Assembly (NCBI GenBank): GCA_015232315.1
Contig: JADFZZ010000032.1
Location: 796 to 32,795 of the forward strand
Length of the DNA stretch: 32,000 nt
From: SAR324 cluster bacterium
Lineage (GTDB): Bacteria; SAR324; NAC60-12
Direction of reading: 5' to 3'
This document shows, piece after piece, positions 3,294 to 29,065 of this stretch. The notes under the pieces are model-generated. The model had not been told where the DNA came from. It did not search any database and worked only from the letters and a program-made list of their open reading frames with translations. The position numbers and the translations under genes are program-made. How positions within the stretch are numbered: the first letter of the stretch is position 1; each line of letters starts with the position of its first letter.

Positions 3294-3355
3294 AACAGAC
3301 TCCTTTTGTAAATTGAGGTTAATGAGCAACCCGATCAATTTTATTCTTGAGTCTA

Positions 3356-3382: not shown

Positions 3383-3463
3383 GATCCTGTATTAAGTTTT
3401 CACCAAAAAAGTTGTTGCTGAAAATTTTCTGGTGACGGCAACCGATTCAAGCCATCGCACTGT

Positions 3464-4714: not shown

Positions 4715-4755
4715 GATAATCCTCTAAATTGATGAAAGATAGTGATTTGATCAAA

Positions 4756-7058: not shown

Positions 7059-7080
7059 TTTCCGGCAAGGAGTAAAAAAA

Positions 7081-8496: not shown

Positions 8497-8648
8497 GAAA
8501 TTACTCCAATAATGTTTAGGTACGTGAACAGAATAGCATGCAAAAATTCTCCTGACAGATCTTCTGCCTGAAAATCGTAGAGACGTGCCAGAGCGTGCCT
8601 CTACAGTCCTGAAAAAGCAGTGTGGGGGAAGGATCTGCCGGAAACACC

Positions 8649-10094: not shown

Positions 10095-10128
10095 GAAACT
10101 CCTTTACAGTATTCAGGTTGAGAGAAAG

Positions 10129-11022
10129 TTATTGCATTTCAAAATGACCTGTCAGATAGGCCGGTCCTCCGGGAGCATCTCCCACAAACACTTCATTTTT
10201 TTCTGTCACAAACAATCCAACTTTTGCTGGAAGCACCAACGGTCTGGTGAATTTCACATCGAACACCTTGATTTTACGACCATCGGCTCCGCAAATGCGG
10301 TTCACGCCTTCCATCGCTCTGGCCATGGTTCCAAAGCCATGCAGAATGGTGCTTTTAAATCCGGAGGCCCTGGCATAGGAAGGGATCCAGTGGATGGGGT
10401 TAAAATCGCCTGTAAGCTTGGCAAAATCGAGCCCCGCGTGGGCACTCAGTTTCCAGAATCCAATTTCCCGAACGTTTTTGGGAACCCTTGCAGGCTCGGA
10501 TTTCTTCCCGCCTTCTTCTTTTTTGTGGGGCAAGGGAACAATCGCATATAAATGAGCTGTCAGCGCGTTGGGTGTTGAAGCGGTTCCTGTAATAATTTTC
10601 TGGTGCAGAACAGCGCGTTTGCCATTGTCATTAACATCTTCAAGGCGTGCTGTGATCTGGAGGGGTTCATTGTTGGGCAGGGGGTGATTGACTTCAATCC
10701 TGCAACCGCCATTCATGACTTTCATTAACGGATAAGGGACACCGCACAGAGTTTGAGAGGCAAGTCCGAAGGCCCATTGAGGAAACAAATGGGGCGGAAG
10801 TTCTTTCTTGTACATTCCGGGATCCCCACCAACATGTCGAATGTAATCATTCACCAGATCCAGCGAGCGTGGCGGTAATGTTTTCTGGATTTCCGGCCCT
10901 GGTATAGTGATAGCAGAGCCCTGCCTGTGATCAAAACGCTGCATGAACGCGGTCAATACGGTTTTCCCCATGCCAGCGAGGACTGTCCCCTGTTTGAGTA
11001 TATGCCTGCTTGAAACACCCAT
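10129..11022 (-). CDS. MaoC-like (R)-hydratase family protein
   Basis: C-terminal FAKLTGDFNPIHWIPSYARASGFKSTILHGFGTMARAMEG is the MaoC/hydratase-2 signature. AAAGG upstream of ATG 11022; same strand and closely spaced with the FabG-like gene. Confidence 0.85.
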   Translation of the reverse strand: MGVSSRHILKQGTVLAGMGKTVLTAFMQRFDHRQGSAITIPGPEIQKTLPPRSLDLVNDYIRHVGGDPGMYKKELPPHLFPQWAFGLASQTLCGVPYPLMKVMNGGCRIEVNHPLPNNEPLQITARLEDVNDNGKRAVLHQKIITGTASTPNALTAHLYAIVPLPHKKEEGGKKSEPARVPKNVREIGFWKLSAHAGLDFAKLTGDFNPIHWIPSYARASGFKSTILHGFGTMARAMEGVNRICGADGRKIKVFDVKFTRPLVLPAKVGLFVTEKNEVFVGDAPGGPAYLTGHFEMQ

Positions 11023-11213
11023 GAACACCTTTCGAATCAGTTTTTATGTGTTTTAATAAAATTTATTAATATCAAATATATATTAATAATAATTAAGCGG
11101 ACACTTGTTCATTAGAGCAAATGTTCTACGCTGATCATCCTGAAAAATCAATGAGAAAATTTATTGAAAGTGGGGGGCTTTTCTTGTCGAAATATTGTGT
11201 TTTTATGACGGGA

Positions 11214-12816: not shown

Positions 12817-13224
12817 ATGAGTATCGAAAATAAAGATCTGAATAAAACAGAGCAGAATGTCACCAAAAAGGAATCTGGTGAGGAAAAAACTGTCGCAGGT
12901 CGATTTTATAGTCCACCGACAGATATCGTTGAAACCGATAAGTCGCTGATTGTGAATATGGACATGCCGGGAGTCTTGAAGGAAAATCTTGCTATCCGTC
13001 TGGAAAACCAGGTGCTGGAAGTGGAGGGACACATTGATTTCAGCCCGTATCAGGGATTGAATCCGATTTATACGGAATACAATGTTGGTCATTACACCCG
13101 CAAATTCACTGTATCCAGTTCGATTAATACGGATAAAATTGAAGCATCTCTCAATGATGGCGTTCTGACATTGACTTTGCCCAAGGCGGAAAAAGCACAG
13201 CCAAGACAGATTCAGATCAGTTGA
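12817..13224 (+). CDS. Hsp20/alpha-crystallin family small heat shock protein (2)
   Basis: PPTDIVETDKSLIVNMDMPGVLKENLAIRLENQVLEVEG...YTRKFTVSSSINTDKIEASLNDGVLTLTLPKAEKAQPRQIQIS; SD AGGAGG. Confidence 0.93.
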   Translation: MSIENKDLNKTEQNVTKKESGEEKTVAGRFYSPPTDIVETDKSLIVNMDMPGVLKENLAIRLENQVLEVEGHIDFSPYQGLNPIYTEYNVGHYTRKFTVSSSINTDKIEASLNDGVLTLTLPKAEKAQPRQIQIS

Positions 13225-13282: not shown

Positions 13283-13474
13283 ATGAGAAAACAGCACGAG
13301 GAAAAGCAATTGACACATGAGGAAATTCAGCAGGCCATGCAAAATTTTCTCGCAAAAGGAAAATCCATTAAAATTCTGGCCCCACAGGAAATATACCAAC
13401 ATGATTATGTCGGTGGATACAACTGGGGACCTTATGAATCAATGGATTCTCTTGATTTTAATACGTTGTCATAA
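13283..13474 (+). CDS. 63-aa uncharacterised protein inside the Hsp20 operon
   Basis: MRKQHEEKQLTHEEIQQAMQNFLAKGKSIKILAPQEIYQHDYVGGYNWGPYESMDSLDFNTLS; strong AGGAGG Shine-Dalgarno; co-directional between hsp20 genes 2 and 3. Confidence 0.65.
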   Translation: MRKQHEEKQLTHEEIQQAMQNFLAKGKSIKILAPQEIYQHDYVGGYNWGPYESMDSLDFNTLS

Positions 13475-13533
13475 CAAAGGTTTCGCCTAATATTTCGAAG
13501 TATTATTCTTTACTTTTTATGCATGGAGGTCAT

Positions 13534-14055
13534 ATGTCATGGAAAGATTTGATCACATGGAATCAAAAAAAAGATGGATATAATAATCCTGTCAAAGTTG
13601 ACACTGCGATGGATCAACACCCGATGGTGATGTTTCATCGTGAAATGGACCGGCTATTTCAGGATTTTTTCAAGGATTTCTGGTCTCCCTCCACTTTCTG
13701 GGGCCGAGAGGGCGGCAGCATGTTTTCACCGAAACTGAATGTCAGTGAGGATGAAAAACAGATTGATGTGACTCTTGAAATTCCGGGGATGGACGAAAAG
13801 GACATTCGAATTTCCCTGAAGGATGACATTCTGTCCATCAAGGGAACGAAAAATCAGGAAAAAGAAGATAAGCAAAAAGAGTATCACCATATTGAGCGTT
13901 CCTATGGTTCGTTTCAACGATCCATTCAGTTGCCTTGTGAAGTACAGGCTGACAAAGTGCAGGCTTCCTTTAAAAAGGGCGTGTTGTCTGTGACGCTTCC
14001 CAAAGTTGAGAATGCACAATCCAGAGTACGAATCATCCCTGTTCAGGGCAACTGA
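13534..14055 (+). CDS. Hsp20/alpha-crystallin family small heat shock protein (3)
   Basis: FSPKLNVSEDEKQIDVTLEIPGMDEKDIRISLKDDILSIKGTKNQEKE...YHHIERSYGSFQRSIQLPCEVQADKVQASFKKGVLSVTLPK; GGAGG before ATG 13534. Confidence 0.95.
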   Translation: MSWKDLITWNQKKDGYNNPVKVDTAMDQHPMVMFHREMDRLFQDFFKDFWSPSTFWGREGGSMFSPKLNVSEDEKQIDVTLEIPGMDEKDIRISLKDDILSIKGTKNQEKEDKQKEYHHIERSYGSFQRSIQLPCEVQADKVQASFKKGVLSVTLPKVENAQSRVRIIPVQGN

Positions 14056-14061
14056 CACTAC

Positions 14062-14088
14062 GGTGGAGGCAAAACCACGGCCTCCACC
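14062..14088 (+). terminator. Hairpin after the Hsp20 operon, possible terminator
   Basis: GGTGGAGGC-AAAACCACG-GCCTCCACC, perfect 9-bp stem 6 nt after the hsp20-3 stop; the following T-tract is weak (CTTCTCGCC), so efficiency is uncertain. Confidence 0.5.
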
Positions 14089-14155
14089 CTTCTCGCCCCC
14101 CTCTTCACCCACAAATTCAAAAAAATTCCTAAAAAATTTCATCAACCTTTCTGAA

Positions 14156-14171
14156 TGGATTATTCTTTGCA
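14156..14171 (+). promoter_or_regulatory. Weak candidate sigma-54 promoter upstream of the motor-like operon
   Basis: TGGATTATTCTTTGCA keeps GG-N10-GC spacing and TTGCA but lacks the CAC after TGG. Confidence 0.25.
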
Positions 14172-14233
14172 AGAACAAAAATCAGAATTCTGCTGACTTC
14201 AGATTTAATAATTGTCTTCAAAGAAAAGGTCGG

Positions 14234-15211
14234 ATGAAACGGTTACTCATTACATTGATGTTATTATCATGCTGCTGGCTGACAGCCATGGCGGAAGAAA
14301 CAGAAAAATCCAGTATTTTCTGGGAGGATCGGGAGATTGGTCAACTGGAAAATATGACGCCGGAATTGCTGGCCGCTGTCAAGCGCATGCATAACCGGAT
14401 TCCCTCGGTCGCAATTTCGACCACCACCATCGATGAAAATCTGAGTCCCAAATTAAGAAGGGTTCTGGTTTCCCGATTGTATGAAATATTGACCACGGAT
14501 GTGGCCTTGAAAATCGGAAAATGCGATGAATGCGGGCAGATACGCAGTGAGCTTTCCGGAAGTTTTCTCAAAATCAGTCGCGGCATCGCGGAAGATGCCT
14601 ACCGACGTTCCAAAGCACGTGAACTGAATGTCGCAGGATTTCTGGACATTTCTGTTTTCATGAGCGAACGGCAACTTTCTGTCACCTTCACCGCTTATGA
14701 TGCCCAGGATGGAAAAATTGCGTTTTCGGAGATCATCACCGGTGATCCGGGTGGACGAACAGAATATACCAATATCTATCTGGGACGATTCAACATTCCA
14801 ATTGCCATTGATGGCACATCCATTGATCATTCAGCCTATATTCTTGGAATGGAACTTTCCAAGCGCATATCGGAATCATGGTTGTTTGCAGGAAATGTGG
14901 CACTTCTGACAGACAATAACAGCAAGTTGACCACCAAATATCCTGACAGTATTTCAGGATTGATGATTGACGGCACTGCCATGTATGAGATGGTTCAGGC
15001 TCTTGGCGGTCGTGCGACAATCGCGGGTGTATTGGGCATGGGGCAATTATTGGCTCCCGCCTTGACGTCACCGTTTTATGCTAAAGTCGGAACAAAAATC
15101 GCGGTAGGTGAGAAACTCACCATTAATCTGCATTATATGTCATTCATCCCTGCCTTGACGACTCCTGAAACAACTGGTGCGACGTATATGGCTTTAGGAT
15201 GGCAGTGGTAA
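14234..15211 (+). CDS. Secreted protein, possible CsgG/FlgO-like or envelope assembly factor
   Basis: Signal peptide MKRLLITLMLLSCCWLTAMAEE; VAISTTTIDENLSPKLRRVLVSRLYEILTT...ELNVAGFLDISVFMSERQLSVTFTAYDAQDGKIAFSEII has CsgG/FlgO-like character; GKCDECG motif. Co-directional with the downstream genes (41-nt gap). Confidence 0.6.
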   Translation: MKRLLITLMLLSCCWLTAMAEETEKSSIFWEDREIGQLENMTPELLAAVKRMHNRIPSVAISTTTIDENLSPKLRRVLVSRLYEILTTDVALKIGKCDECGQIRSELSGSFLKISRGIAEDAYRRSKARELNVAGFLDISVFMSERQLSVTFTAYDAQDGKIAFSEIITGDPGGRTEYTNIYLGRFNIPIAIDGTSIDHSAYILGMELSKRISESWLFAGNVALLTDNNSKLTTKYPDSISGLMIDGTAMYEMVQALGGRATIAGVLGMGQLLAPALTSPFYAKVGTKIAVGEKLTINLHYMSFIPALTTPETTGATYMALGWQW

Positions 15212-15252
15212 TCAAACACGGATGTTAATTCATAGATTCCAGGGAAGGTAGT

Positions 15253-16578
15253 ATGCGTCAATTTCGTAAATATGCGGCATGGCTGTTATTGACAGGAGGT
15301 CTCGCAGGATGTTCCTCCTCCGCTGAAGAGGTGGAAAGTGCCCCCAAAGTATCCAGACAAACCATTTATAATCAGTTCATTGATGGTGGAAAAAGCTCAA
15401 TCAGCGTTCTGGAGGAAACCATTGGTGGTAAAAAGCAGATCCGGATTGTGCTGAAAAAAGAGGGCGTTGATTCCAGCATCACACACCCTATCGACAATCC
15501 AAATTTCGTGATCGCAGTCCCACTGCATGATCCTACCAGTGCCAGAGTCGGTATTCAGACCATTGATTTTGAAAATGAAAAACGACGTTTGATTGAAGAA
15601 TTACTGCTGAGGTATATTCCACGTGATCGTTTCAATGTTTCCATTAAACTGTTTTGGGATGAAAAACGACTGGAAGAACTCCAACTCAAGGGGGTGCCAT
15701 TTCAAGAATCAATGGGAAGCACACAACCCGTCCCAACAGCATCAACCAAAGCGCCCGATAAATTGAATTATGAACTGGAACAGGCCGTGATTCGGCAGGA
15801 AACCAGGATTATGCTGGACAACACACTGCCAGCATATCAGGAAAAATTTGTCCGACTGCTACTGCCTTCCCAAACTTTTTTTGTCAAATCACGCGGAGAC
15901 ACGGCCACCGTGGAGCGTGTGATTTTCCCCAAGGCATCACCCGAAAGTATTGCGCCTGAGGAAGAACGACTGATCCGTGAAAAAGTACAGAAAATGATTC
16001 AGGAATATCTGAGTCAGGATGATTTTGTGGTCAATGTCCGGCTCAGTATGAAAGGTGGACAAAACATTCAGAGCATCACTGGACAGGGCGATCAGATTTC
16101 TGTGGCCTCCATGTCCACTGCAACGGATCAGGTGAGTGACCGCATGAATATCAATATCAATGTTCTGCTCAATGATCTGACCTCTCCGGATACCGATGAG
16201 TTTCTCCGCAACACGATTCCCTATGCCATTCACATGGACATGGCGGATGGCGACCAGTTGACCATCACCCGCAAACGGTTTCCGGAAAAAGATTATGGTC
16301 AGATTTCGCCACAACAGGTTGCGCAACTGGAAGAATACAAACGGGAAATTCTTACCGCTTTTGAATCAGGGAATTATGCAGGTGGCCTGGATCTGGTTAA
16401 AAAGGCCATGAAGATCAGTGTAAAACGGGACGACCGCCTGAGTTTGCTAAAAATGCAGGGGTCGCTGTATTTTCTGCTTCAGGACAAACAGCGTGCTCGC
16501 GAAACATGGGAGCATTTGATCAAACTTGATCCGGAAAACGAAGAAGCAAAACAAATGCTTATGAATTTGGTGAAATGA
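15253..16578 (+). CDS. Lipoprotein with repeated FliF/YscJ-collar-like modules and C-terminal TPR-like repeats
   Basis: Lipobox LAGC in MRQFRKYAAWLLLTGGLAGCSSS; DDFVVNVRLSMKGG...ININVLLNDLTSPDTDEFLRNTIPYAIHMDMADGDQLTI; TPR-like SLYFLLQDKQRARETWEHLIKLDPENEEAKQ. Confidence 0.6.
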   Translation: MRQFRKYAAWLLLTGGLAGCSSSAEEVESAPKVSRQTIYNQFIDGGKSSISVLEETIGGKKQIRIVLKKEGVDSSITHPIDNPNFVIAVPLHDPTSARVGIQTIDFENEKRRLIEELLLRYIPRDRFNVSIKLFWDEKRLEELQLKGVPFQESMGSTQPVPTASTKAPDKLNYELEQAVIRQETRIMLDNTLPAYQEKFVRLLLPSQTFFVKSRGDTATVERVIFPKASPESIAPEEERLIREKVQKMIQEYLSQDDFVVNVRLSMKGGQNIQSITGQGDQISVASMSTATDQVSDRMNININVLLNDLTSPDTDEFLRNTIPYAIHMDMADGDQLTITRKRFPEKDYGQISPQQVAQLEEYKREILTAFESGNYAGGLDLVKKAMKISVKRDDRLSLLKMQGSLYFLLQDKQRARETWEHLIKLDPENEEAKQMLMNLVK

Positions 16579-17855
16579 CCATGAGACTGAAACGATTTGG
16601 ACTGACATTGTTATGTTTGGGACTGACCGGAATGTTTTTCGGAACATTTTACGCGGCAGAACCGGAATCCTCTGCTGTAACCGCAGAAATGCCTAGCAGA
16701 CCTTCCATTTTGCCTGATTCCGCTATGGATATTCCGGCGGAAATGCCAGTTGTGCCAGAAGCACCCGCGACGACTGCGGTGCCTGTTACATCAACCGCGC
16801 CCTCAAAGGCCGCGGACTCTACTGTTGTGCCCCCTGCGCCCGTAAAAGCAGGCAATGCTTCTGCTCCAACGATGCCAGTGCAGGAACAGCCAAGACGGCC
16901 CGAACCACGAAACACCAACGAAATTATTTCCGCGCCCTTTGAACAATTGAAAAAACTGTATGGCAAACCTGAGGGGACAACCCTGGAACAACCAGCAGAA
17001 GTGGACCAGAAACCAAAACAACCTGAAGTTGTTGAAACCAAAACGAAGTCACCGATTGAAGAAATGGATTTGCCTTCGCTTTCAGAGCAACAGGAAACGG
17101 AACGGAATCTTGAGTTCAAACTGGAAACAGCCCTGAAAGAATTATTGCTGGACAAATATGTTCAGGTCAAAGTGATTGTCCATTATCTCGTCAATACTGT
17201 TCCAATCACTGAAAGCAACAAGCAAATATCACAAATGCGGCTTCCGGGATTTAAAAATCAGGTGTGGGTGCCGATTGATCAGAAAAAAGTAACAGGCCTG
17301 GTGCATCGGTTGACACGTTACAACAGTATTTTTGTGGTGGTCAATCAGCCGGTATCACCGTTTGATCTGGAAGTCCTGCGACAAAAACTGAATGCAAAAA
17401 TCGCTGAAATTGATCTGGAAACCAATGATTTTCTTAAAGTCGCTTATGTTCCACTGGCAGAAATGCCAGGAACTGAAAAGCCAATGGCATCCCAACCGGA
17501 AACTCAGTCAGAGGCCACTGATCAGGTTGAAAAAATGCCTGAACCTGAAATAACGCCAGAACCGCCCAAACTTGTTTCAGCCAATGAACAACGCGATGTC
17601 GAAGTAAAATCAGCCAAGCAATTGCTCGAAGCACGCACCGCGTTTTTCAGGAATGACCTGAAAGAAGCGTTGGATAAAATCAATAAAGCCATTGAAATGA
17701 ATCCTGACTCCGCACAGGGCTATGCCATGCTGGGGTCGGTGTATTATCGCCTGAAATGGTATGGACAGGCAAAAAAACACTGGAAAAAATCTCTGGAACT
17801 GGAGCCTGACAATCCTTTGATTGCTCAGTATCTCGAACGATTGGAGAACGAATGA
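16575..17855 (+). CDS. Secreted or membrane-anchored protein with Pro-rich linker, collar-like domain and C-terminal TPR-like repeats
   Basis: N-terminal hydrophobic segment LTLLCLGLTGMFFGTFYAAEP; long P/A/E-rich linker; YVQVKVIVHYLVNT...MRLPGFKNQ...SIFVVVNQPVSPFDLEVLRQKLNAKIAEID; TPR SAQGYAMLGSVYYRLKWYGQAKKHWKKSLELEPDNPLIAQYLERLE. Start overlaps the upstream stop (ATGA). Confidence 0.6.
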   Translation: MTMRLKRFGLTLLCLGLTGMFFGTFYAAEPESSAVTAEMPSRPSILPDSAMDIPAEMPVVPEAPATTAVPVTSTAPSKAADSTVVPPAPVKAGNASAPTMPVQEQPRRPEPRNTNEIISAPFEQLKKLYGKPEGTTLEQPAEVDQKPKQPEVVETKTKSPIEEMDLPSLSEQQETERNLEFKLETALKELLLDKYVQVKVIVHYLVNTVPITESNKQISQMRLPGFKNQVWVPIDQKKVTGLVHRLTRYNSIFVVVNQPVSPFDLEVLRQKLNAKIAEIDLETNDFLKVAYVPLAEMPGTEKPMASQPETQSEATDQVEKMPEPEITPEPPKLVSANEQRDVEVKSAKQLLEARTAFFRNDLKEALDKINKAIEMNPDSAQGYAMLGSVYYRLKWYGQAKKHWKKSLELEPDNPLIAQYLERLENE

Positions 17856-19744
17856 TGGCACGCTATCTTAAAACAGGTTGGATCTGTCTGTTGCTGAGCC
17901 TATGCGTTTCAGGGCATGTATGGGCTGAAGAACGCATCACATCCCTGCCTGCGAAACAGTATGAAATTGAATCGGCCATTCACAACAGCCTGCGGCATTA
18001 TATGGAACCACAGGACTATGTGATCAAAGTCTGGCTGAAGGGAAAGAAAAAAACCATTGAGACCTTCCCTTTCAAAAATTTCAGTTCATCAACGGATGAA
18101 GTCCTGCCCGGATTCGGTACACCGCCCTCGCCTGTAACCAACGAAGACCCTGTCGCCGTTGAAGGCGAAACTTACTGGGTTGTGGAACAGATGCGTGTGG
18201 ATTTGATTCTTTACAAAGAAATATCTCCATCGCTGGCCACCTATATCACAGAGATCATTCCCGTCTTAAGCGGAATGAATTCTCAACGTGGCGATGTATT
18301 CAATTTTATGCCGATCAAACCCAAACCACTTGAAAGCGACAGTCCCAGACCGTTGAATCCTGATGGCAGTGCCATGGATGGTGCGTCGTCATCTTCAGAT
18401 CAGGCTGTCGCCACACCTGAACCGGAACCAACCCTTGAACAAATGCTGATTCCGCAAACACCAATGGAATGGCTACAGGCAGGGGTGAGTTTGCTGTTAT
18501 TGCTCCTGATCCTCTTTATTTTCTGGAGAATCATTAAATTACAGAAACAGCAGAAAGCCGCGCAGGCCGCCCAGGAAAAATCCGCTGTGGACATCCGGGA
18601 TCTGGTGCCTTCTCCGCAAAACGCCATCGCGACGATTCAACAGGCTCGTCAAGATCTGGTGCGCCGGCAGGATGAGCATGTTCAGGAAATATTGCTGGTT
18701 GAAGAAAACAACCGGCTTTTGCAGGAAATCATCAAACAACTGGTAGGACGTGAAGACTGGAAACAGCATCTGATTGAGGAAATGACACGGGATAAACAGT
18801 CCACCGAAGCCTTCACACGGTTGCTGGCCATGATGGGACCCCAGACGGCCCGCCGGCTGTTTTCCGAACAGTTGGGACATGAGGCCTATCTGGATCTGGA
18901 ACAACTGGCCCGGGATCTTTCGTTCACACCACAAGAGGCCAATTCGATTCTGAAGGATATCTGGACATTTTTATTCACTAAAAAGCTGACCTTGCCTGAA
19001 AAAGTAGCGACGGATCCTTTTGGTTATCTGTTGAAATTGTCTACCGGGCAAATCGCGTTTTTGCTCAAGGATGAACCGGTCAAAATCAAGGCACTGGTTG
19101 TCAGTCGCCTGAACAGTGAACAGGCAACAGAAGTGATCGGACATTTCCCGAAAGATGAACGGACTCAGGTCATGCTGCATCTGGGCAAGATGGAGGAACT
19201 TCCTCTCGAACTGGTGTCGCAGGTCGCTTATAATCTGGCTGACAAGGTACGAAGCCTGCCTGACAGCAATACTGTCGCGGTCAATGGAGTGAATCTCGTG
19301 ATTGATGTCCTGGGTGAGGTCGAACATGGAGTTCGGCAGGACATCATCAACGGCTTGCGGATTTCTGATCAGCGTTTGAGTGATATGGTGGAAAGCCGGT
19401 GTTTCATTTTTGAATCCATTCCGTTTGTACCCAAAGAAGTTTTGATGGAAGTGGTCCGTCGTTTACCGCTGGATGATGTCATTATTGCGATCTCCGGTGC
19501 GACAAAAGAAATCAAGGAAGCCGTCATCCTGTGTTTTCCTGAGCAAAACCGTCAGGCGATTGTATCTGCCTTGAAAGCAAAAACACCATCCCCGGATGAC
19601 ATTCGGGAAAAACGCAGGGTGTTTGCCCAATCCATGCGTGGCATGGCAGAAAACAACAGGGTCGATTTGAAAGAAATCAACACCGCGTGGGCCCAACAGC
19701 ACGATGCTGTTCCAGCCCTGAATTTTGAACAGCAGGAGTCATAG
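17852..19744 (+). CDS. Chimeric membrane protein: FliF-collar-like periplasmic domain, one TM, and FliG-like middle and C-terminal domains
   Basis: Signal peptide 1-25; MRVDLILYKEISPSLATYITEIIPVLSGMNSQRGDVFNF; TM about 208-226 (LQAGVSLLLLLLILFIFWRI); FliG-like DEPVKIKALVVSRLNSEQATEVIGHFPKDERTQVMLHLGKMEEL...LVIDVLGEVEHGVRQDIINGLRISDQRLSDMVESRCFIFESIPFVPKEVLMEVVRRLPLDDVIIAISGATKEIKEAVILCFPEQNRQAIVSAL. ATGA overlap with the upstream gene. Confidence 0.75.
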   Translation: MMARYLKTGWICLLLSLCVSGHVWAEERITSLPAKQYEIESAIHNSLRHYMEPQDYVIKVWLKGKKKTIETFPFKNFSSSTDEVLPGFGTPPSPVTNEDPVAVEGETYWVVEQMRVDLILYKEISPSLATYITEIIPVLSGMNSQRGDVFNFMPIKPKPLESDSPRPLNPDGSAMDGASSSSDQAVATPEPEPTLEQMLIPQTPMEWLQAGVSLLLLLLILFIFWRIIKLQKQQKAAQAAQEKSAVDIRDLVPSPQNAIATIQQARQDLVRRQDEHVQEILLVEENNRLLQEIIKQLVGREDWKQHLIEEMTRDKQSTEAFTRLLAMMGPQTARRLFSEQLGHEAYLDLEQLARDLSFTPQEANSILKDIWTFLFTKKLTLPEKVATDPFGYLLKLSTGQIAFLLKDEPVKIKALVVSRLNSEQATEVIGHFPKDERTQVMLHLGKMEELPLELVSQVAYNLADKVRSLPDSNTVAVNGVNLVIDVLGEVEHGVRQDIINGLRISDQRLSDMVESRCFIFESIPFVPKEVLMEVVRRLPLDDVIIAISGATKEIKEAVILCFPEQNRQAIVSALKAKTPSPDDIREKRRVFAQSMRGMAENNRVDLKEINTAWAQQHDAVPALNFEQQES

Positions 19745-19765
19745 AATTTTTTATAGGTCTGAGTT

Positions 19766-20725
19766 ATGAAAGACACCATTGGCACACTTCTGGGCTTTTT
19801 AATTGGTATTTCCCTCGTCTTGTTTGGAATCACCTGGCCTGATCATTTGTCCAACTATTACATGTATCAGTTGCGCGAATATGAAATGGCCACAAAGCAG
19901 ATGAAAAAAGACGGGGTGCCTCGCAACCAGATTCAGGAACTTGAACAGAAATTCTCAGAGTTTCAGGATTCATGGATCGGAACCATGTCCCGCTTTATTG
20001 ATCTCAAATCGTTTTTGATTGTGATGGGCGGCGCCTATTCCGCGATGATGGTCGCGTTTCCGTTTGACAAGGCGATGGGGGCTTTTGTGTTCATTGTCAG
20101 GGTGTTTGCGTCATCCGTGAAGAAGGAAGAATTTCTGGATGTGTATCACACCGTTCTCAAACTGGCTGAAAAACGAGTGAACAATGCCATCCTCACCGAT
20201 GAGGATATCAATGCTATTCATTCAGTGGATCTAAAACGTTGGGTTCAGGATTTCATTGTGGTCGATATCGTTGAAGAAAACATGATTGAGGAAATTGTTC
20301 GATCGGAAATTGAAATGTACAATTATCGTTCTTTTGAAGAAATTGATGTCCTCAATTTTCTTGGTGCCGCGTCTCCCGCTTTTGGAATGCTCGGTACCGT
20401 GGTTGGTCTGATTCTGATGCTGGGAAATACGGGTGGTGATGTAGCCGGTGTGATGGGGGGAATGTCCATTGCGTTGATCACGACATTGTATGGAGTGTTT
20501 CTGGCCCAGATCATGTTTTTGCCGATAGCATCCAAACGCTATCAAATGAAAGAGTCGCACATCATGTTGCTGGAAATGATCAGAGAAGGTCTGCTCTATC
20601 TCAAACGGCGTGAAATTCCTGATACGATCTCCCAGGATTTAATCATTTATCTGCCTCTCAAAATGCGTCAGAAAATCACTGAAGAAAAAATGGCGGCGAT
20701 GCGTGAGGGTAATTTGGGATTGTGA
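19766..20725 (+). CDS. MotA/ExbB-family proton-channel (stator) subunit, divergent MotA
   Basis: FIDLKSFLIVMGGAYSAMMVAFP; FLGAASPAFGMLGTVVGLILML...MSIALITTLYGVFLAQIMFLPIASK, matching MotA TM2-TM4; 319 aa. Confidence 0.9.
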   Translation: MKDTIGTLLGFLIGISLVLFGITWPDHLSNYYMYQLREYEMATKQMKKDGVPRNQIQELEQKFSEFQDSWIGTMSRFIDLKSFLIVMGGAYSAMMVAFPFDKAMGAFVFIVRVFASSVKKEEFLDVYHTVLKLAEKRVNNAILTDEDINAIHSVDLKRWVQDFIVVDIVEENMIEEIVRSEIEMYNYRSFEEIDVLNFLGAASPAFGMLGTVVGLILMLGNTGGDVAGVMGGMSIALITTLYGVFLAQIMFLPIASKRYQMKESHIMLLEMIREGLLYLKRREIPDTISQDLIIYLPLKMRQKITEEKMAAMREGNLGL

Positions 20726-20728
20726 TCT

Positions 20729-21376
20729 ATGGCCAATCGAAAAGACGCATCAACCGAAACCCCTGCATGGGTGGTTTCTTTTGCCGATCTGATGAGCTTG
20801 CTGTTCAGCTTTTTTGTGCTGCTCACCACACTTTCCACTCAGCCGAAAAATTGCGAGGGCATCCGTGAATATATGGAAAACAACAAGGCGTTTTTTAAAA
20901 ACTATGAACTTCGATCCACTAAACTGAGTTGCATTGTTTCCTTACCTCAAGATTATCTGTTCAAATCAGGACAAGGCAAAATCCAGCCTTCGGCCTTCAA
21001 AGCGCTCACTCCATTTTTTGAGAAAATCCGCGATCTGCCGGAACATCGTGAAGATCTGTTGATTGTGGAAGGTCACACCGACAATGTGCCCATCCATACC
21101 CGTGAATTTCCCAGCAATTGGGAACTCAGCTCGGCCAGAGCCACCAATATTTCCGTATTCATGATGGAAAAACTCAAATTTGCCCGCGAACGACTGTCCG
21201 TTTCGGCCTATGCGGATTCGCGTCCCAAAACCCCCTATGTAGACACTTACGGCAAACCATTAACCGGCAAGGACCTCCAGAATGCTCGACAAACCAACCG
21301 TCGAGTTGAAATCATTCTGACAACACCCCCCAAATCCCTTGAGGAAACCACCATGCTGTTTGATGGTCGGGAATAA
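20729..21376 (+). CDS. MotB-like stator subunit with OmpA/peptidoglycan-binding domain
   Basis: WVVSFADLMSLLFSFFVLL (conserved Asp TM); LFKSGQGKIQPSAFKAL...LLIVEGHTDNVPIHTREFPSNWELSSARATN; 215 aa, 3 nt after the MotA-like stop. Confidence 0.92.
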   Translation: MANRKDASTETPAWVVSFADLMSLLFSFFVLLTTLSTQPKNCEGIREYMENNKAFFKNYELRSTKLSCIVSLPQDYLFKSGQGKIQPSAFKALTPFFEKIRDLPEHREDLLIVEGHTDNVPIHTREFPSNWELSSARATNISVFMMEKLKFARERLSVSAYADSRPKTPYVDTYGKPLTGKDLQNARQTNRRVEIILTTPPKSLEETTMLFDGRE

Positions 21377-21842
21377 GGCCCTCATCTGACCTCATCAATA
21401 CTGTGTGAATTATTTTTTCACGATAATGAGGCCATATTATGCAATATTAACTCATGTGATGCAATAAACTTTTTTAAATAAAAAATATGAGTTTTCTCAT
21501 CACAACGCCGCTAACGCAGAGGGCCAATGGCTGACAGTTCGCACTCTGAATCATTTCGGATTGAGGAAACAAAAAACTTTGATTTCAGCCGGATATATTG
21601 TCAGTTACCACAAAGTGCTGTCCATTGAAAACAAGCCTGGCAGGCGTAAAGAGCATTCAAAAAAAACTCCTTGACGAAGGGCTAGTGAATACGCTACATG
21701 CATATCTAATATCTAACAAAGGCCAGGGGAGGATCTTTGTTTACAACGATTTCCCAAATCGGGGGGGATTAACCAGCCCCCTGTAAACATTGGCAATTGT
21801 GAGATATTGTTTATTTTTTTAACTAATCTCTTTGGAGGAAGT

Positions 21843-22427
21843 ATGAAAATGTTCAAACAATGGAAAAAAAGATGGGCTGGATTCAGTCTTGTAGAAATTG
21901 TAATCGCCATCGCGGTCATCGGGATCATGTCTGCGGCGTCAGTGCCCCTGATCAAAAGCACACTCGATAAATCAAAAAATTCCCGCGCAAAAAGCGAACT
22001 GGAAGAAATACGAAATGCGTCTGTGTCATTTTATGGCGATACCTTTCAGGTTCCCGGTAATATTGGATGTACCAAGACAGCCACAACCCATCTGCTGACA
22101 GATACAGCAGCGGCAAAAATTGACATGTCCAAAGCAGGGACTGTGACATCTGATGATCTGGATGCGCATTTCAATACGAACTGTACAGGTGCCAATGCCG
22201 GTAAATATACAGACAATAGCTTGGGTGGCGCCTGGAGAGGCCCATACATGGAAGCTGATCGCTATGATCCATGGCAAAAATCTTATGTATTGGTCACAAA
22301 TACATTTGGAACTACTGATACCGCATCCGGTTATGCTCTTTCCGGTGGAACCGATGAGCAGGTCAACACTGCCAAGGCTACAGCCGCAAGTACCAGTGAT
22401 GTATATATCAAAGTCAGTCTGAAATAA
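21843..22427 (+). CDS. Type IV pilin / type II secretion pseudopilin (GspG-like)
   Basis: Class III signal MKMFKQWKKRWAG|FSLVEIVIAIAVIGIMSAASVPLIKSTLDKSK, with GGAGG Shine-Dalgarno and ATG at 21843. Confidence 0.88.
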   Translation: MKMFKQWKKRWAGFSLVEIVIAIAVIGIMSAASVPLIKSTLDKSKNSRAKSELEEIRNASVSFYGDTFQVPGNIGCTKTATTHLLTDTAAAKIDMSKAGTVTSDDLDAHFNTNCTGANAGKYTDNSLGGAWRGPYMEADRYDPWQKSYVLVTNTFGTTDTASGYALSGGTDEQVNTAKATAASTSDVYIKVSLK

Positions 22428-22440
22428 TTTTTCCTCATAA

Positions 22441-22465
22441 GGCGGGTCACTCCCGCCTTTCTTTT
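22441..22465 (+). terminator. Rho-independent terminator after the pseudopilin gene
   Basis: GGCGGG-TCACT-CCCGCC followed by TTTCTTTT. Confidence 0.8.
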
Positions 22466-25341
22466 AGCTGACGATTCAGCTCTTCAAAGTGATTTCCCAT
22501 CCAACTCAACAGTTTCTTCTCATGCGGTGGAAAGCGTGTGTCAGACATGATGAATGTCTGGAAAATTTGAAGATACATGGCTTTTTCTCCGGCTTTCAGC
22601 ATTTCGACCTCCATTGCGCTCAGAAATACAGGATTGTATTTGGGCGGTGATGAATTTTGCAGGATGTTCCTGATTAAATCTTTCAGGTGATCCAACTGGT
22701 CCGTATACAGAAAATCCAGAAACAGAAATTCATCCTGAAACTTTTTTGGGGGAATATCCTTTCGGACTAGCTCACGATACAATGTGACAGCTTCCAGTTT
22801 ATCCCACATTTGTGCCATATTTCTGGGGTGCGTGATTTTTTTGAATTGATGATCAATCTCATTCCAGTTGGAATTTTTGCGGGCAATTCGCAGGGAATCT
22901 GTCAGCCATTCCAATTTTTCTGAAGGAATTGGCGGAGCATTTTTAAAATAATCTGTTTGAGCTCTGGAAAAATTTTCTGGTTCCAGAATTTCCTGATAAA
23001 ATGAAATAGCATTTATAAATGACCAGAACAAATCCACTTCCTGACTCAGAAACAACGCTTTTTCCGCACTGTTATCAACCAGAGGGAAAAAATATGAATT
23101 GGGATTCACATCTTCCAGAATAGGGCGTAGACTCTGGGTTGAAACAATAAAATTCTGAGGGCCGAACAAACGGGTATCCCCCTTGAATTTCAAAAATTCC
23201 TGAGCAATCTCTGGTTCTCGTTCAAAACGATCAATGGCATCCAGATTGAAATCAGTGTTGCCTGCAACAATCACATAATTTGCTTCACCAGCCAGATATA
23301 TTTTTGCGTAGGGAAAACGATTATCCAGAGCCTTGATAATGGTCAGCATGAGTTCTGTGTTGAAGGAATAACCATGGACCCATTGGACCAGTAAGCCTTC
23401 TGGTTTTAGAAATCGTTGGATGTGCTCGTAGAATTCTTCGGTGAACAGGCTCGAAACACCACTGACCCAAGGATTTGATGGTTCTGAAATGATAAGGTCA
23501 TATTGTCTGTTGGCCTGATAGAAATAGGTTTTGGCATCATCAAAAATAGGACGGATTTTGGGACTGTCATACACATTTCGATTATAAGGATAGAAATTTT
23601 TTGCCAATTCATACATCTGTTCTTCAATTTCGATCAAATCCAGATGTTTTAACAAGGGGTCGGATAGCAGATAGTGTGCAGACATACCACTGCCCAACCC
23701 GATCATTGCGGCGTCATAAGGCTGATTCATCGCAGCCATCGGAACAAACGCGGCAGCGGCCTGAGTATATTCATCTTCAGATATGGTGCCTTTCAATCCG
23801 ATACTCGCATCAACCTTGCCATTTGTTGCGATCATTGACCTGAATGGATTGAACGTGAATGAGATGGTTGCTGTTTTTCCATCCTTGACGAGTATTTGAT
23901 GAAAATCTCCGGCATTCAGCTTGCCACGAAAAACACCTATTGTGGTAAGATTCGGGTCAAGTTTGATATGCAATACAGGAATAAAGACCAGCACAGAAAC
24001 GCAGAGTGTCGCAATGAACTTCCATCGGGAAAGCTTATAGGCACCCAGCAGCACAAGTCCCAGACCGATATCAATCAAAGCTCCTGAGGCAATGGTGTAT
24101 TTGATCTGAAAATTCGGCAATAGCAATAACCCTCCCAGAGAGGCGCCAAGTATGGCTCCTATCGTATTCCAGCCATATACAAATCCAGTGTATTTTTCAT
24201 TGCGTGTAAAATTGATCAGATAATAAGTGATCAATGGCAGTGTCATTCCCGCAAAGAAACTGGTGGGTGCCATCATCAATAGGCAGATCAGATATTTGAA
24301 TATGGAATAGACTGGATAGGCGAGTTCTGTTTTTCTGAATACAGAATGTGAGTCGCTGATCGCGTAAAAAAACGGCTCGTAAAAATAGATGCTGCTCAAC
24401 GCAAACGCCCCCATGAGAATCTGGATGAAAGCCAACGTATGCGCGATGTTTCGTGAAGAGTCAATCAGCTTGCGGGCATAACCGCCTCCCAGGGCCAACC
24501 CCAGGATGAACGCGGAAATCATGATATCAAACGAATGGGTTGAAGATCCCAGCAACAACCCCAGAAGCCTGATCCAGCCAACTTCGTAAATGAAGGATGA
24601 AAACCCTGTCAGACCGCTGATCAACAACCATAGTCCAATGGTGCGCTGATCCGGAAGTTCATGTGAAATTTCCTTGTGAGATTCCGCACCGGAAAAAGAT
24701 TCTGTTATTTTGGGGCCAATGATTTTATCAGCTTTTTTGGCGATGAAATAAAACATCAATGCAATCAGTACATTGGAAGAACCAGCAATGGCGAGAGTTC
24801 CTATGGTTCCCATTTCCGGAATGAGCAGATAGGAAGTCGCCAGAATTCCAATGGCGGCACCCAGAGAATTGGTGAAATATAACACAGGCAGTGAAGAACG
24901 TCCTTCATCTCTGCTGACACGAATGACACCCACTGTGATGAATGGAAAAGTCATTCCAAGCAGGATCGCGGTCGGGAGCGTCATCAGCATGGAGATCAGC
25001 ACCTTGGTCAGATTGGCAAACCAGAAAGACGAAAAATATACATTGGCGGCTTCATAAAACCATTGGGTACAGACTAGATAAATTCCGTGGAAGACAAAAC
25101 CTGAAACGCCCACCAGCAACTCAATGGCAGCATAGACATAAAATGGATTCCGGATATTCCGACAGAGTCGTCCTGCCAGAAACGACCCGATGCCGAGTCC
25201 ACCCATAAAAATGGAAAGTGTCAGGATCTGACCATAAAACGAATGTCCGAGAAATAATTTAAGATACCGGGACCACAGTGATTCATAAATAAGACCAACA
25301 AATCCTGAAACAACGAACAGACCATAAATCAGGCGAACCAT
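22447..25341 (-). CDS. Fused MFS-like membrane domain and spermidine-synthase-like methyltransferase-fold protein
   Basis: Multiple TMs starting SGFVGLIYESLWSRYLKLFLGHS; C-terminal AAMIGLGSGMSAHYLLSDPLLKHLDLIEIEEQMYELAKNF...YDLIISEPSNPWVSGVSSLFTEEFYEHIQRFLKPEGLLVQW; ATG start 25341 (the ORF track uses TTG 25347). Confidence 0.85.
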   Translation of the reverse strand: MVRLIYGLFVVSGFVGLIYESLWSRYLKLFLGHSFYGQILTLSIFMGGLGIGSFLAGRLCRNIRNPFYVYAAIELLVGVSGFVFHGIYLVCTQWFYEAANVYFSSFWFANLTKVLISMLMTLPTAILLGMTFPFITVGVIRVSRDEGRSSLPVLYFTNSLGAAIGILATSYLLIPEMGTIGTLAIAGSSNVLIALMFYFIAKKADKIIGPKITESFSGAESHKEISHELPDQRTIGLWLLISGLTGFSSFIYEVGWIRLLGLLLGSSTHSFDIMISAFILGLALGGGYARKLIDSSRNIAHTLAFIQILMGAFALSSIYFYEPFFYAISDSHSVFRKTELAYPVYSIFKYLICLLMMAPTSFFAGMTLPLITYYLINFTRNEKYTGFVYGWNTIGAILGASLGGLLLLPNFQIKYTIASGALIDIGLGLVLLGAYKLSRWKFIATLCVSVLVFIPVLHIKLDPNLTTIGVFRGKLNAGDFHQILVKDGKTATISFTFNPFRSMIATNGKVDASIGLKGTISEDEYTQAAAAFVPMAAMNQPYDAAMIGLGSGMSAHYLLSDPLLKHLDLIEIEEQMYELAKNFYPYNRNVYDSPKIRPIFDDAKTYFYQANRQYDLIISEPSNPWVSGVSSLFTEEFYEHIQRFLKPEGLLVQWVHGYSFNTELMLTIIKALDNRFPYAKIYLAGEANYVIVAGNTDFNLDAIDRFEREPEIAQEFLKFKGDTRLFGPQNFIVSTQSLRPILEDVNPNSYFFPLVDNSAEKALFLSQEVDLFWSFINAISFYQEILEPENFSRAQTDYFKNAPPIPSEKLEWLTDSLRIARKNSNWNEIDHQFKKITHPRNMAQMWDKLEAVTLYRELVRKDIPPKKFQDEFLFLDFLYTDQLDHLKDLIRNILQNSSPPKYNPVFLSAMEVEMLKAGEKAMYLQIFQTFIMSDTRFPPHEKKLLSWMGNHFEELNRQLKERRE

Positions 25342-25595
25342 AGACAATTCTCAAGAGAAGAGGATATTAAAAATAAAAATGCATAGCAGATGTTATTCAT
25401 GACGGTCAAGTGCGATTCTTTTCAAACAGAATATTGCTATCCGTCGCAGAATGTATTAGTTGTTCCCTGCTGGTAATCTGGACTTTCCCTATGGGATTCT
25501 GAGCTATTTTCCCGGAGGGGTAAATGAATCATCCTTAGCGTGAAAAATTAAAATCCATTCGTGTAACGTGTTCATGTTTTATTAATCTTTATTCA

Positions 25596-27835: not shown

Positions 27836-28333
27836 ATGATTAAATTAAGAGATTCCATTTTTGTAATTCGCCCGGCTACACCGCAGGATGTCCCGGTGAT
27901 TTTACAACTGATCAGGGACTTGGCTGACTATGAAAAATTAAGTCAGGAAGTTTGCGCCACGGAATCCCTGTTGCACCAGGCCCTGTTTGAACAATATTCC
28001 GCAGAAGTTTTACTGGGATTTATGGATCATCAGCCTGTCGGAATGGCTGTTTTTTTTCATAGCTGTTCCACATTTCTGGGGCGTCACGGTATTTATCTGG
28101 AAGATCTTTATGTGCGACCGGAATTCAGAGGTAAAGGGTTGGGAACTTCTTTGCTGAAAGAAATTGCCCGCTTGGCTGTTGAACGGAAATGCGGCCGAAT
28201 TGAATGGGCTGTGCTCAATTGGAACACTTCCGCGATTGAGTTTTATGAAAATCTTGGCGCTTCTCCACTGAGTGGCTGGACCACGTATCGTCTTACTGGA
28301 AATGCCCTGGAAAAATTCGCGCTGAGTGATTAA
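27836..28333 (+). CDS. GNAT-family N-acetyltransferase (diamine acetyltransferase-like)
   Basis: FVIRPATPQDVPVILQLIRDLADYEKL...LYVRPEFRGKGLGTSLLKEIARLAVERKCGRIEWAVLNWNTSAIEFYENLGA. Confidence 0.9.
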   Translation: MIKLRDSIFVIRPATPQDVPVILQLIRDLADYEKLSQEVCATESLLHQALFEQYSAEVLLGFMDHQPVGMAVFFHSCSTFLGRHGIYLEDLYVRPEFRGKGLGTSLLKEIARLAVERKCGRIEWAVLNWNTSAIEFYENLGASPLSGWTTYRLTGNALEKFALSD

Positions 28334-28349
28334 CCATCATAGGAATAAT

Positions 28350-29051: not shown

Positions 29052-29065
29052 TCCTGAGCTGCTTA

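Follow-up and report, generated by a model that had tools for sequence, protein, structure and literature searches.

The stretch of DNA analysed here (the window, 32,000 nucleotides from a SAR324 bacterium) contains a compact unit of six genes, which we call O, A, B, C, D and E, all on the same strand (Table 1). An earlier note on this DNA had described A to E as a minimal set of five genes. The five open reading frames, their strand and their coordinates were confirmed, but the count was not, since O, located 41 nt upstream of A, is a sixth gene that is kept together with A-B-C. The junctions are as first reported: A and B as well as B and C overlap in ATGA (16575-16578 and 17852-17855), and gaps of 21 nt and 3 nt separate C from D and D from E. 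Genes for rod, hook, export, FliM or FliN were not found in the window, again in line with the earlier note. The window does hold a flagellin gene.

Table 1 Coordinates of the features in the window
Feature	Position (nt)	Strand	Description
Flagellin gene	1674-3359	-	
Sigma54-type promoter motif (putative)	14156..14171	+	TGGATTATTCTTTGCA, GG-N10-GC; 63 nt upstream of the O start codon
Unit O-A-B-C-D-E	14234-21376	+	six genes
O	14234..15211	+	325 aa; true start is the ATG of MKRLL, with ribosome-binding site
A	15253-16578	+	441 aa; lipoprotein
B	16575-17855	+	426 aa; secreted TPR protein
C	17852-19744	+	630 aa; FliF-FliG chimera
C, RBM3-like domain	17939-18316	+	residues 30-155
C, membrane helix	18461-18547	+	residues 204-232
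C, FliG N/M/C-like region	18749-19702	+	residues 300-617
D	19766-20725	+	319 aa; flagellar-type MotA
E	20729-21376	+	215 aa; flagellar-type MotB

Unlike FliG, which is soluble and has about 330 aa, C (630 aa) starts with a signal peptide and also comprises a periplasmic domain and a membrane helix. The signal peptide (residues 1-25) is followed by an RBM3-like alpha-beta-beta-alpha-beta domain with a 35-aa insertion that holds an invariant LPGF motif, then by an acidic linker, the membrane helix, a long helix and a region that resembles the N, M and C domains of FliG. Pfam FliG_M and FliG_C are matched with 54 bits (cut-off 25) and 52.3 bits (cut-off 23.3), respectively, and a profile of C finds FliG in the PDB with an E of 3.7e-16. 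The AF2 model (pLDDT 69.8) matches full-length FliG chains in Foldseek with an E of 4e-9 over 307-339 columns, and the isolated domains reach a TM of 0.84 for FliG_C and 0.88 for FliG_M. The FliG equivalog TIGR00207 gave 74 bits, under its cut-off of 226.7. In the model, the periplasmic part has one domain only (about 130 aa), and this matches the RBM3/S-ring of FliF (E 3.8e-3, probability 1.0); SpoIIIAG was matched as well. Pfam finds no FliF domain in the window copy of C itself, and none of the proteins C, A and B matched RBM1-RBM2 (YscJ_FliF, PF01514), the region of FliF that houses the export gate, even with E values of up to 1 allowed. The FliF/FliG chimera read earlier from the letters was thus borne out by fold (Foldseek, AF2) and by profile.

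In an HMM alignment of C to T. maritima FliG, and dependent on that alignment, KDEPxK stands opposite SEHPQT with the Glu alone kept and a residue other than Arg at the Arg position. The FliM-binding EHPQR motif is apparently not kept in C, and a CheY-controlled switch would then probably be absent. The torque-helix charges are not conserved in SAR324: R281, D288 and D289 of E. coli FliG correspond to Q565, S572 and A573 in what we take to be the correct mapping to E. coli numbering. E564, R567 and K575 nearby are invariant. The chimeras have kept the MFXF-like hinge (CFIF / YFxF) and the FliG_C fold in full.

A, an outer-membrane-type lipoprotein, has a classical lipobox (LAGC) with Ser at +2. 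Two FliF-RBM3-like domains follow in tandem, covering approximately residues 100-232 and 233-348, and residues 351-441 form a TPR domain at the C-terminus. The two repeats match each other (hhalign 99%, E 3.9e-18) and the periplasmic domain of C (79% and 96%), and 10/13 A orthologues match Pfam YscJ_FliF_C (best E 2.1e-8). A match of A to FliF in the PDB is weak (E 0.008), and a single-sequence AF2 model is confident for the TPR part only. This TPR tail is common to B (95.7%); in the window copy of A it is below the Pfam cut-off but confirmed by profile, whereas in B it is above the cut-off and present in 13/13 orthologues. B starts with a signal peptide and a Pro/Ala/Glu-rich linker of ~130 aa, followed by a central domain (about 165-300) with an invariant LPGF motif and the C-terminal TPR part. 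Its central domain is weakly similar to the periplasmic domain of distant chimeras described below (hhalign 69%, E 4.4e-5), did not match C directly in a profile comparison and is possibly RBM3-like. The periplasmic domain of C is thus common to A and, less surely, to B.

O is secreted, has a conserved N-terminal domain with a Cys pair (C97/C100) and resembles an outer-membrane beta-barrel in its C-terminal half, the last residue being aromatic. Pfam OMP_b-brl was matched by 7/13 orthologues (best E 1.7e-5); no sequence relative of O was found in the PDB. In distant operons, the gene 3' of the chimera is a homologue of O (hhalign 97.3%, E 2.7e-11), and one of these distant homologues weakly matched Pfam FlgO (E 0.014). 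The N-domain of O may thus be weakly FlgO-like.

D matches Pfam MotA_ExbB with 76 bits and, among NCBIfam models, MotP with 122 bits and PomA with 106 bits; its sequence matches in the PDB are flagellar MotA/PomA only (E 1e-25 to 1e-17). The PAFGM and FxPxA motifs are conserved in the alignment, and an insertion of ~45 aa between TM1 and TM2 is specific to SAR324. Compared to the rotor-facing charges R88/E96 of PomA, the acidic cluster (TDED) is in place, with K and R as basic residues displaced by 1-2 positions. E carries the conserved Asp in its N-terminal membrane helix (SFADLMSLL) and matches Pfam MotB_plug (40.4 bits), the peptidoglycan-binding OmpA family (49.1 bits) and the NCBIfam MotB family (122.6 bits). 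Both proteins stay under every NCBIfam equivalog cut-off, those of MotP, PomA and MotB included (122 vs 394 bits, etc.). The earlier assignment of D/E as MotAB, distinct from Zorya and Tol/Exb, holds: they are of the flagellar type by every sequence test.

The arrangement O-A-B-C is complete and syntenic in 22/27 species loci of the SAR324 phylum, at protein identities of 30-50%, and is interrupted by contig ends in the other five. This is far beyond chance. Within 10 kb of O-A-B-C, none of the 30 annotated SAR324 loci has a flagellar gene. MotAB is located after C (O-A-B-C-D-E; window, TL4, L029), before O (D-E-O-x-A-B-C; L020, L021, L023, L028) or, in the marine clade, elsewhere near a flagellin gene, and the linkage in two different arrangements argues for selection on it. 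The marine orthologues of D/E are 62-65% identical and have the same insertion. Given that their genes are located away from O-A-B-C, at a distance of 2.4 kb from flagellin, and are not preceded by the sigma54 motif, they may be the flagellar stator itself or take on its role as well. SAR324 is flagellated, judging from its flagellin genes with sigma28-like promoters.

A lone occurrence of the sigma54-type motif is not significant (5 in the window vs 4.1 expected); the significant part is its conservation across loci. In 23/23 SAR324 loci, TGG-N8-TTGC[AT] occurs in the 350 nt that precede the first gene of the module; it has at least seven divergent sequence versions, and the background is 0.026 per 350 nt.

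Outside the SAR324 family, the best 150 representative protein clusters include at least 107 with the same order of signal peptide, periplasmic domain, membrane helix and FliG; LPG motifs are present in 100 and RGD-like motifs in 94 of these. Pfam YscJ_FliF_C is matched by 6/18 distant chimeras, and a profile of distant members matches residues 407-558 of Salmonella FliF (end of RBM3, TM2 and C-tail; E 0.0027) as well as full-length FliG (11-326). At four loci (L043, L044, L045, L046) the chimera is part of a tight five-gene operon with an O-homologue, a TPR lipoprotein, MotA and MotB, joined by 4-nt overlaps and with no flagellar gene within 10 kb. L043 is from a Fibrobacterales MAG; the cultured members of this order are not known to carry flagella. 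The distant chimeras have a canonical-looking torque helix, LPERKAEML.FDIEK, in which the Arg and an acidic residue are retained. Two distant loci have chimera, TPR protein and barrel without adjacent MotAB. At L035, a PilZ gene is located divergently upstream. The earlier note had named a lack of synteny beyond this strain as a point on which its proposal would fall; synteny was found throughout the SAR324 phylum, together with a homologous five-gene operon in distant lineages.

We give a probability of roughly one half to the joint reading that O-A-B-C-D-E is a single operon with a putative sigma54-dependent promoter and that it encodes a filament-less, envelope-spanning rotor-stator complex derived from the flagellar motor. 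C would contribute the C-terminal half of FliF (the ring-building RBM3 domain, the second membrane helix and the cytoplasmic tail) and a whole FliG. By analogy to FliF and to engineered FliF-FliG fusions, which form rings (PMC11481574), it would build a membrane ring with a FliG ring below. From homology and linkage, D/E would be an ion-driven stator of the MotA5B2 type, anchored to peptidoglycan and pushing the FliG_C domains in the ring of C. A, B and O could be stacked periplasmic rings or a scaffold reaching the outer membrane, like the H/T-rings or PflAB/FlgP discs that hold the stators in some flagella. The gene set spans from the inner membrane (MotAB, chimera) to the outer membrane (lipoprotein), as first proposed. 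Since C lacks RBM1/RBM2 and export gate, rod and hook are missing, the complex should be unable to export or carry a filament. We infer from the sequences that it rotates; our guess is that the torque moves or remodels an outer-membrane or periplasmic assembly, which would be envelope or surface work and not swimming.

It is tempting to go one step further, to a widespread stand-alone rotary machine with a FliF(RBM3)-FliG ring, its own MotAB and TPR lipoproteins leading to an outer-membrane barrel, but without type III export, axial structure and switch. Such a machine would either have branched off from the flagellar motor and taken up a task other than swimming, or be a living relative of a rotor-stator module older than the flagellum; we put this stand-alone reading at slightly less than an even chance. 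D is 25-28% identical to the MotAs of distant chimera operons and 27-33% to bona fide flagellar MotA/PomA, which gives no sign of a dedicated stator clade and counts against the filament-less reading. Also weighed against it were the flagellin in the window, the detached D/E of marine SAR324, the non-conserved torque-helix charges of SAR324 and the distant loci without MotAB.

The first two of these points also speak for the main alternative, which we consider less likely than the filament-less reading: O, A, B and C would be lineage-specific additions to the basal body, scaffold rings plus an extra FliF/FliG-like ring, and D/E a recruited flagellar stator, comparable to Vibrio MotX/MotY/FlgO/FlgP/FlgT and Campylobacter PflA/PflB/FlgP. 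Stator scaffolds typically consist of TPR proteins and lipoproteins, as in the T/H-rings of Vibrio and the disc of Campylobacter. The flagellin found in the window and, in marine SAR324, beside the detached D/E, the flagellar type of D/E and the weakly FlgO-like domain of O and its homologues are in line with such an accessory, and sigma54 for the operon with sigma28 for flagellin fits the two-tier cascade of polar flagellates (cf. PMC3930126). On the other hand, the self-contained five-gene operon with its own MotAB occurs without flagellar neighbours at four distant loci, one of them Fibrobacterales, the SAR324 loci likewise lack flagellar genes nearby, and C has lost the FliM-binding motif. 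Moreover, we know of no flagellar motor with a second, membrane-anchored FliG ring.

The other two points, together with marine SAR324, where MotAB is also outside the neighbourhood, and the PilZ gene at L035, would suit an envelope complex that is static. In this case, the products of C, A, B and O would form a trans-envelope ring that does not rotate but serves as tether, sensor or docking platform. The FliG-like domain would be there only for binding or regulation, for example to park or sequester stators or to bind a c-di-GMP effector, and the adjacency of D/E would be a matter of co-regulation. This is improbable: the distant chimeras with canonical-looking torque helix share an operon with MotAB, hinge and FliG_C fold are conserved, and the linkage to MotAB survives rearrangement. 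That D/E are a non-flagellar 5:2 motor for defence (Zorya-like, anti-phage) or outer-membrane transport (Tol/Ton-like energiser) is effectively refuted by NCBIfam scores, PDB matches and PADLOC: E matches ZorB models via its generic MotB/OmpA part, but the TolQ/ExbB matches of D are weak (19-20 bits vs 106-122 bits for PomA/MotP), its PDB matches are flagellar stators only, TonB, TolA, TolB and Pal genes were not found in the window, and the PADLOC Zorya search gave no ZorA match for D, none for O, A, B and C, and no ZorC/D/E-like genes.

To our knowledge, torque generation by FliG and MotAB is known only inside flagella, and every other 5:2 ion motor has partners of a different kind. If the filament-less rotor-stator complex is real, the rotor-stator pair is a separable module that can be reused for another purpose, and a much simpler, experimentally tractable system for stator-rotor coupling would be at hand; it would also bear on how flagellar motor and export apparatus came together. 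If the genes are a flagellar accessory instead, they would still represent a new elaboration of the basal body with a second membrane-anchored FliG ring. The chimera operon is also relevant to annotation.

A description of an O-A-B-C-D-E machine was not found in the literature, in which the nearest precedent is the natural FliF-FliG fusion of Chlamydiaceae, a shortened FliF joined to FliG sequence where a complete flagellum is missing (Bergeron 2016, PeerJ, PMC4768692). The chlamydial protein has about 330 aa with RBM2, an RBM-like domain, a TM and a FliG_M-like region only, and no linkage to MotAB (PMC4768692). The chimeras are set apart by their architecture (about 600-700 aa, RBM3 only, complete FliG) and by their association with MotAB, a TPR lipoprotein and an outer-membrane barrel. 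With the Vibrio H-ring (FlgO/FlgP/FlgT) and T-ring (MotX/MotY) and with PflA/PflB/FlgP of Campylobacter the unit shares a weakly FlgO-like outer-membrane protein, lipoproteins and TPR proteins beside a stator, and O/A/B-type proteins could, by analogy, position MotB as these scaffolds do; unlike them, A has FliF-RBM3-like repeats, and membership by sequence amounts to the one FlgO match. ExbBD-TonB, TolQR-TolA with CpoB, AglRQS-Glt, GldLM (T9SS) and ZorAB share the concept of an inner-membrane ion motor acting through the periplasm on the outer membrane, and also TPR proteins (CpoB in Tol), lipoproteins and beta-barrels. However, they work through rods of the TonB/TolA kind or an elongated partner of the B subunit and are not known to use FliG, and D/E belong to the flagellar branch, outside the Exb/Tol/Agl/Gld/Zor branches. 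A survey of MotAB from 2025 describes no FliG-linked non-flagellar stator (PMC12505986). From the flagellar motor core the unit differs in that FliF and FliG are one polypeptide without RBM1/RBM2, that the operon has no genes for export gate, rod, hook, LP-ring or FliM/FliN, that EHPQR and torque-helix charges are missing in SAR324, and that the NCBIfam equivalog cut-offs are not reached. It shares with this core the FliF RBM3-like domain, TM2, C-tail and FliG N/M/C folds of C, and flagellar-type stators with plug, Asp, PAFGM/FxPxA and peptidoglycan-binding domain.

Protein C, the 630-aa product of the fourth operon gene, is indeed the FliF/FliG chimera that the earlier note had proposed: Foldseek, profile and Pfam matches identify the C-terminal half of FliF joined to a complete FliG. 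The window is DNA of an uncultured SAR324 cluster bacterium, and C is 100% identical to NCBI HQM11_17135, encoded on a 58.9-kb contig. In an AlphaFold model built from 11 orthologues (pLDDT 69.8), a signal peptide is followed by an alpha-beta-beta-alpha-beta domain with a 35-residue disordered insertion between its two long strands, an acidic linker, a membrane helix, a long helix and a helical region. Full-length FliG chains from the PDB (310-331 residues) match the helical region over 307-339 aligned columns with E values of 4e-9 to 1e-6, isolated FliG_C/FliG_M domains superpose on the predicted model at TM 0.84-0.88, and Pfam confirms both FliG_M and FliG_C. The periplasmic domain matches the FliF RBM3/S-ring (E 3.8e-3 and weaker, probability 1.0) and also SpoIIIAG in Foldseek. 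A profile of the distant chimera family matches Salmonella FliF 407-558 (E 0.0027), covering the end of RBM3, TM2 and the FliG-binding tail, as well as Aquifex FliG 11-326; Pfam YscJ_FliF_C is matched in 6 of 18 distant members.

RBM1 and RBM2, in which FliF accommodates the export gate, are missing from C. In an HMM alignment to T. maritima FliG, and dependent on that alignment, only the Glu of the FliM-binding motif EHPQR survives. The charge positions of the torque helix (E. coli R281, D288 and D289) are Q, S and A in C, with the invariant residues E564, R567 and K575 nearby. The torque helix of distant chimeras looks canonical (LPERKAEML.FDIEK).

ORF calls reproduced exactly the five ORFs of the earlier note on the strand given there, with two ATGA overlaps and gaps of 21 and 3 nt. 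All five genes are real; the unit, however, includes a sixth, O, located 41 nt 5' of A. The lipobox of A (LAGC, Ser at +2) is a textbook one and agrees with its assignment as a lipoprotein, and Pfam confirms the TPR assignment of the secreted protein B. The periplasmic domain of C is duplicated in tandem within A: the repeats match each other (hhalign 99%, E 4e-18), C (79% and 96%) and the distant chimeras (98%), and Pfam YscJ_FliF_C is found in 10 of 13 A orthologues (best E 2e-8). A C-terminal TPR tail is common to A and B (hhalign 95.7%); the single-sequence AF2 model of A (pLDDT 43) is usable for the TPR part alone. The central domain of B matches the C-type periplasmic domain weakly (69%) and has an invariant LPGF motif in common with the insertion in C; direct hhalign of B against C gave no match. 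O has a signal peptide, a conserved N-domain and a C-terminal half with a final aromatic residue, and 7 of 13 orthologues match Pfam OMP_b-brl. Searches of PDB sequences with O and a distant homologue returned nothing meaningful.

Features of the window and of protein C
Feature	Position	Strand	Remark
Flagellin gene	1674-3359	-	561 aa; sigma28-like promoter just upstream
minCD	3935-5493	-	
TerB/S24 gene	5733-7058	+	441 aa; TerB-like N-terminal region, C-terminal LexA-type S24 peptidase domain; adjoins minCD
Thiolase, SDR and MaoC-dehydratase cluster	7081-11028	-	G+C 0.51-0.52 vs ~0.44 elsewhere; N-terminal extensions of ~100 aa (thiolase) and ~240 aa (SDR)
Two Hsp20/alpha-crystallin small heat-shock genes	12817-13224, 13519-14055	+	directly 5' of operon
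sigma54-type motif	14156-14171		motif scan
Gene O	14234-15211	+	outer-membrane beta-barrel-like
Gene A	15253-16578	+	lipoprotein
Gene B	16575-17855	+	secreted TPR protein
Gene C	17852-19744	+	FliF/FliG chimera
Gene D	19766-20725	+	MotA-like
Gene E	20729-21376	+	MotB-like
GspG/PilA-like pseudopilin gene	21807-22427	+	prepilin N-methylation motif; ~430 nt 3' of E
Terminator	22439-22459		strong hairpin after pseudopilin gene; sole convincing one in 13400-22500 scan
Polytopic membrane protein gene	22447-25347	-	966 aa; spermidine-synthase-like domain (Pfam Spermine_synth), long C-terminal helical extension
CheX-like DUF3334 gene, then gene for 564-aa protein	28326-30760	+	weak receiver domain in 564-aa protein
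alpha-beta-beta-alpha-beta domain of C	residues 30-155		AlphaFold model
Sole membrane helix of C	residues 204-232		AlphaFold model
All-helical region of C	residues 300-617		AlphaFold model

In 23 of 23 SAR324 loci, the 350 nt preceding the first module gene contain a sigma54-type motif, TGG-N8-TTGC[AT]; at least seven divergent versions occur, and the background is 0.026 per 350 nt. The motif is missing upstream of the detached marine motAB. Scans of 13400-22500 for sigma70 promoters and terminators gave matches no more numerous than in shuffles, and RNA or tRNA features were not found in the window. Rod, hook, export, FliM and FliN genes are absent from the window, as had been noticed before, yet it holds a flagellin gene, alongside a CheX-like/response-regulator pair. 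The sigma28-like flagellin promoter reads TCAAGTTT-N11-GCCGATGA (region 3360-3400), and marine SAR324 flagellin promoters read TAAAGTTT...GTCGATGA and TAAAGAAA...GCCGATTA. Gene and promoter in the window show that the host is flagellated.

As to the flanks, no other locus mapped by tblastn and ORF calls keeps the pseudopilin gene next to the operon, and the Hsp20 pair is not kept either. The DUF3334/receiver pair is kept in the sister MAG contig L041, on which no additional flagellar genes were found.

Synteny extends well beyond this strain. A scan with one genome per GTDB species gave 27 loci, all labelled SAR324, Deltaproteobacteria, Lambdaproteobacteria or unclassified, and tblastn with ORF mapping found the order O-A-B-C in every SAR324 locus whose flanks were long enough. 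The window, strain TL4 and locus L029 have D-E after C, whereas in four loci (L020, L021, L023, L028) D-E stands immediately before O. In each of these four, O and A are separated by an additional ~0.7 kb, the size of a gene (about 6950-7690), and the A orthologues are just 23-24% identical to A of the window. In the marine clade (e.g. loci L002, L006, L010, L013, L018), C is followed by an opposite-strand ppk gene and D-E is not in the flanks; the orthologues, 62-65% identical to D/E of the window, lie by themselves as a pair, with a flagellin gene 2.4 kb away. 'Deltaproteobacteria bacterium TL4' (GCA_051382335.1; L001/L004, JBBCAX010000041.1) has the complete O-A-B-C-D-E set; its record title does not include 'MAG:', so it may be cultured or enriched and therefore offer an experimental entry point.

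When 1.84 billion representatives were searched exhaustively with a profile, 3028 matched, 64 of them below 1e-30. Among the best 150 of the 3028, 111 have at least 500 aa. An internal membrane helix falls within residues 120-400 in 107 of these 111, and of the 107, 100 have an LPG motif in the periplasmic part and 94 an RGD-like motif. Gene context was read for seven distant members. Four loci (L043, from the Fibrobacterales MAG GCA_047518385.1; L044, on a 1.36-Mb contig; L045; L046) are tight same-strand operons with 4-nt overlaps that encode the chimera, a ~360-aa protein, a TPR lipoprotein, MotA (262-270 aa) and MotB, and no flagellar genes were found within 10 kb. By hhalign (97.3%, E 2.7e-11) the ~360-aa protein is a homologue of O, and one copy weakly matches Pfam FlgO. 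Two other contexts, from three loci, have the TPR lipoprotein and chimera only, to which L035 adds a small barrel protein. Comparison of these operons and contexts identifies the chimera, the TPR lipoprotein and an outer-membrane barrel, usually with MotAB, as the core conserved across phyla; the RBM3-repeat lipoprotein A is a SAR324 addition. Divergently upstream of the TPR-chimera-barrel trio of a RIFOXYA12 deltaproteobacterial MAG (L035/L036) lies a PilZ-domain gene (8456-8797, - strand), and a c-di-GMP link is possible by analogy with YcgR, which acts on FliG/MotA. A word-indexed search with the distant-chimera profile returned 2 proteins only, a metagenome scan 4 FliG-only loci, and a plasmid tblastn canonical FliG only.

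The proposed MotAB pair was recovered by Pfam, with MotA_ExbB in D and MotB_plug and OmpA in E, and the channel Asp, plug and peptidoglycan-binding domain are all present in E. D is flagellar-type in all sequence tests run: NCBIfam MotP/PomA score 106-122 bits versus 19-20 bits for TolQ/ExbB, every curated NCBIfam equivalog cut-off being missed, and PDB sequence matches are to MotA/PomA only (E 1e-25). Between TM1 and TM2, D has a SAR324-specific insertion of ~45 residues (about 25-70), with many charged, helix-forming residues and a predicted location in the periplasm. All SAR324 orthologues have this insertion, detached marine copies included, and it was not found in MotAs of distant chimera operons or PDB MotA/PomA. 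The insertion could contact the TPR proteins.

Read parsimoniously, the operon would encode a self-contained machine that descends from the flagellar motor or is related to it. C would form a ring shaped like the S-ring of the MS-ring, with the FliG ring covalently attached; MotAB stators would contact FliG_C of this ring and act on it, the ring would rotate, and A, B and O would build a periplasmic/outer-membrane ring scaffold. With RBM1/2, the export gate, the rod and the FliM-binding motif all missing, the complex can neither build a filament nor switch one. We put the probability of a truly stand-alone machine, independent of the flagellum, at about 45%; if true, it would be of high interest.

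A serious rival, if on the unlikely side, is a flagellum-associated role, in which the operon would give the flagellum a scaffold of a new kind and a second FliG ring, this one anchored in the membrane. It stays serious because SAR324 is flagellated, the marine D/E pair adjoins flagellin, the torque-helix charges are changed in SAR324 C, and D shares no more identity with distant chimera-operon MotAs (25-28%) than with genuine flagellar stators (27-33%). A weaker rival, and an improbable one, is a static complex that does not rotate. Tol/Exb is rejected on scores and on partners absent from the window; Zorya or another defence system is rejected since PADLOC finds no ZorA or other defence component, a generic ZorB aside.

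A literature search found neither a description of the O-A-B-C-D-E operon nor a statement on the SAR324 fliF/fliG/motAB complement, and a 2025 survey of MotAB and non-flagellar relatives does not mention a FliG-linked non-flagellar stator (PMC12505986). Engineered FliF-FliG fusions form rings (PMC11481574). The one natural fusion found in the literature is a chlamydial protein of 330 aa with RBM2, an RBM-like domain and FliG_M (Bergeron 2016, PMC4768692). The chlamydial fusion is without MotAB, whereas the operon described here has MotAB genes and combines rotor and stator parts of the flagellar kind in a new trans-envelope arrangement that has no filament.
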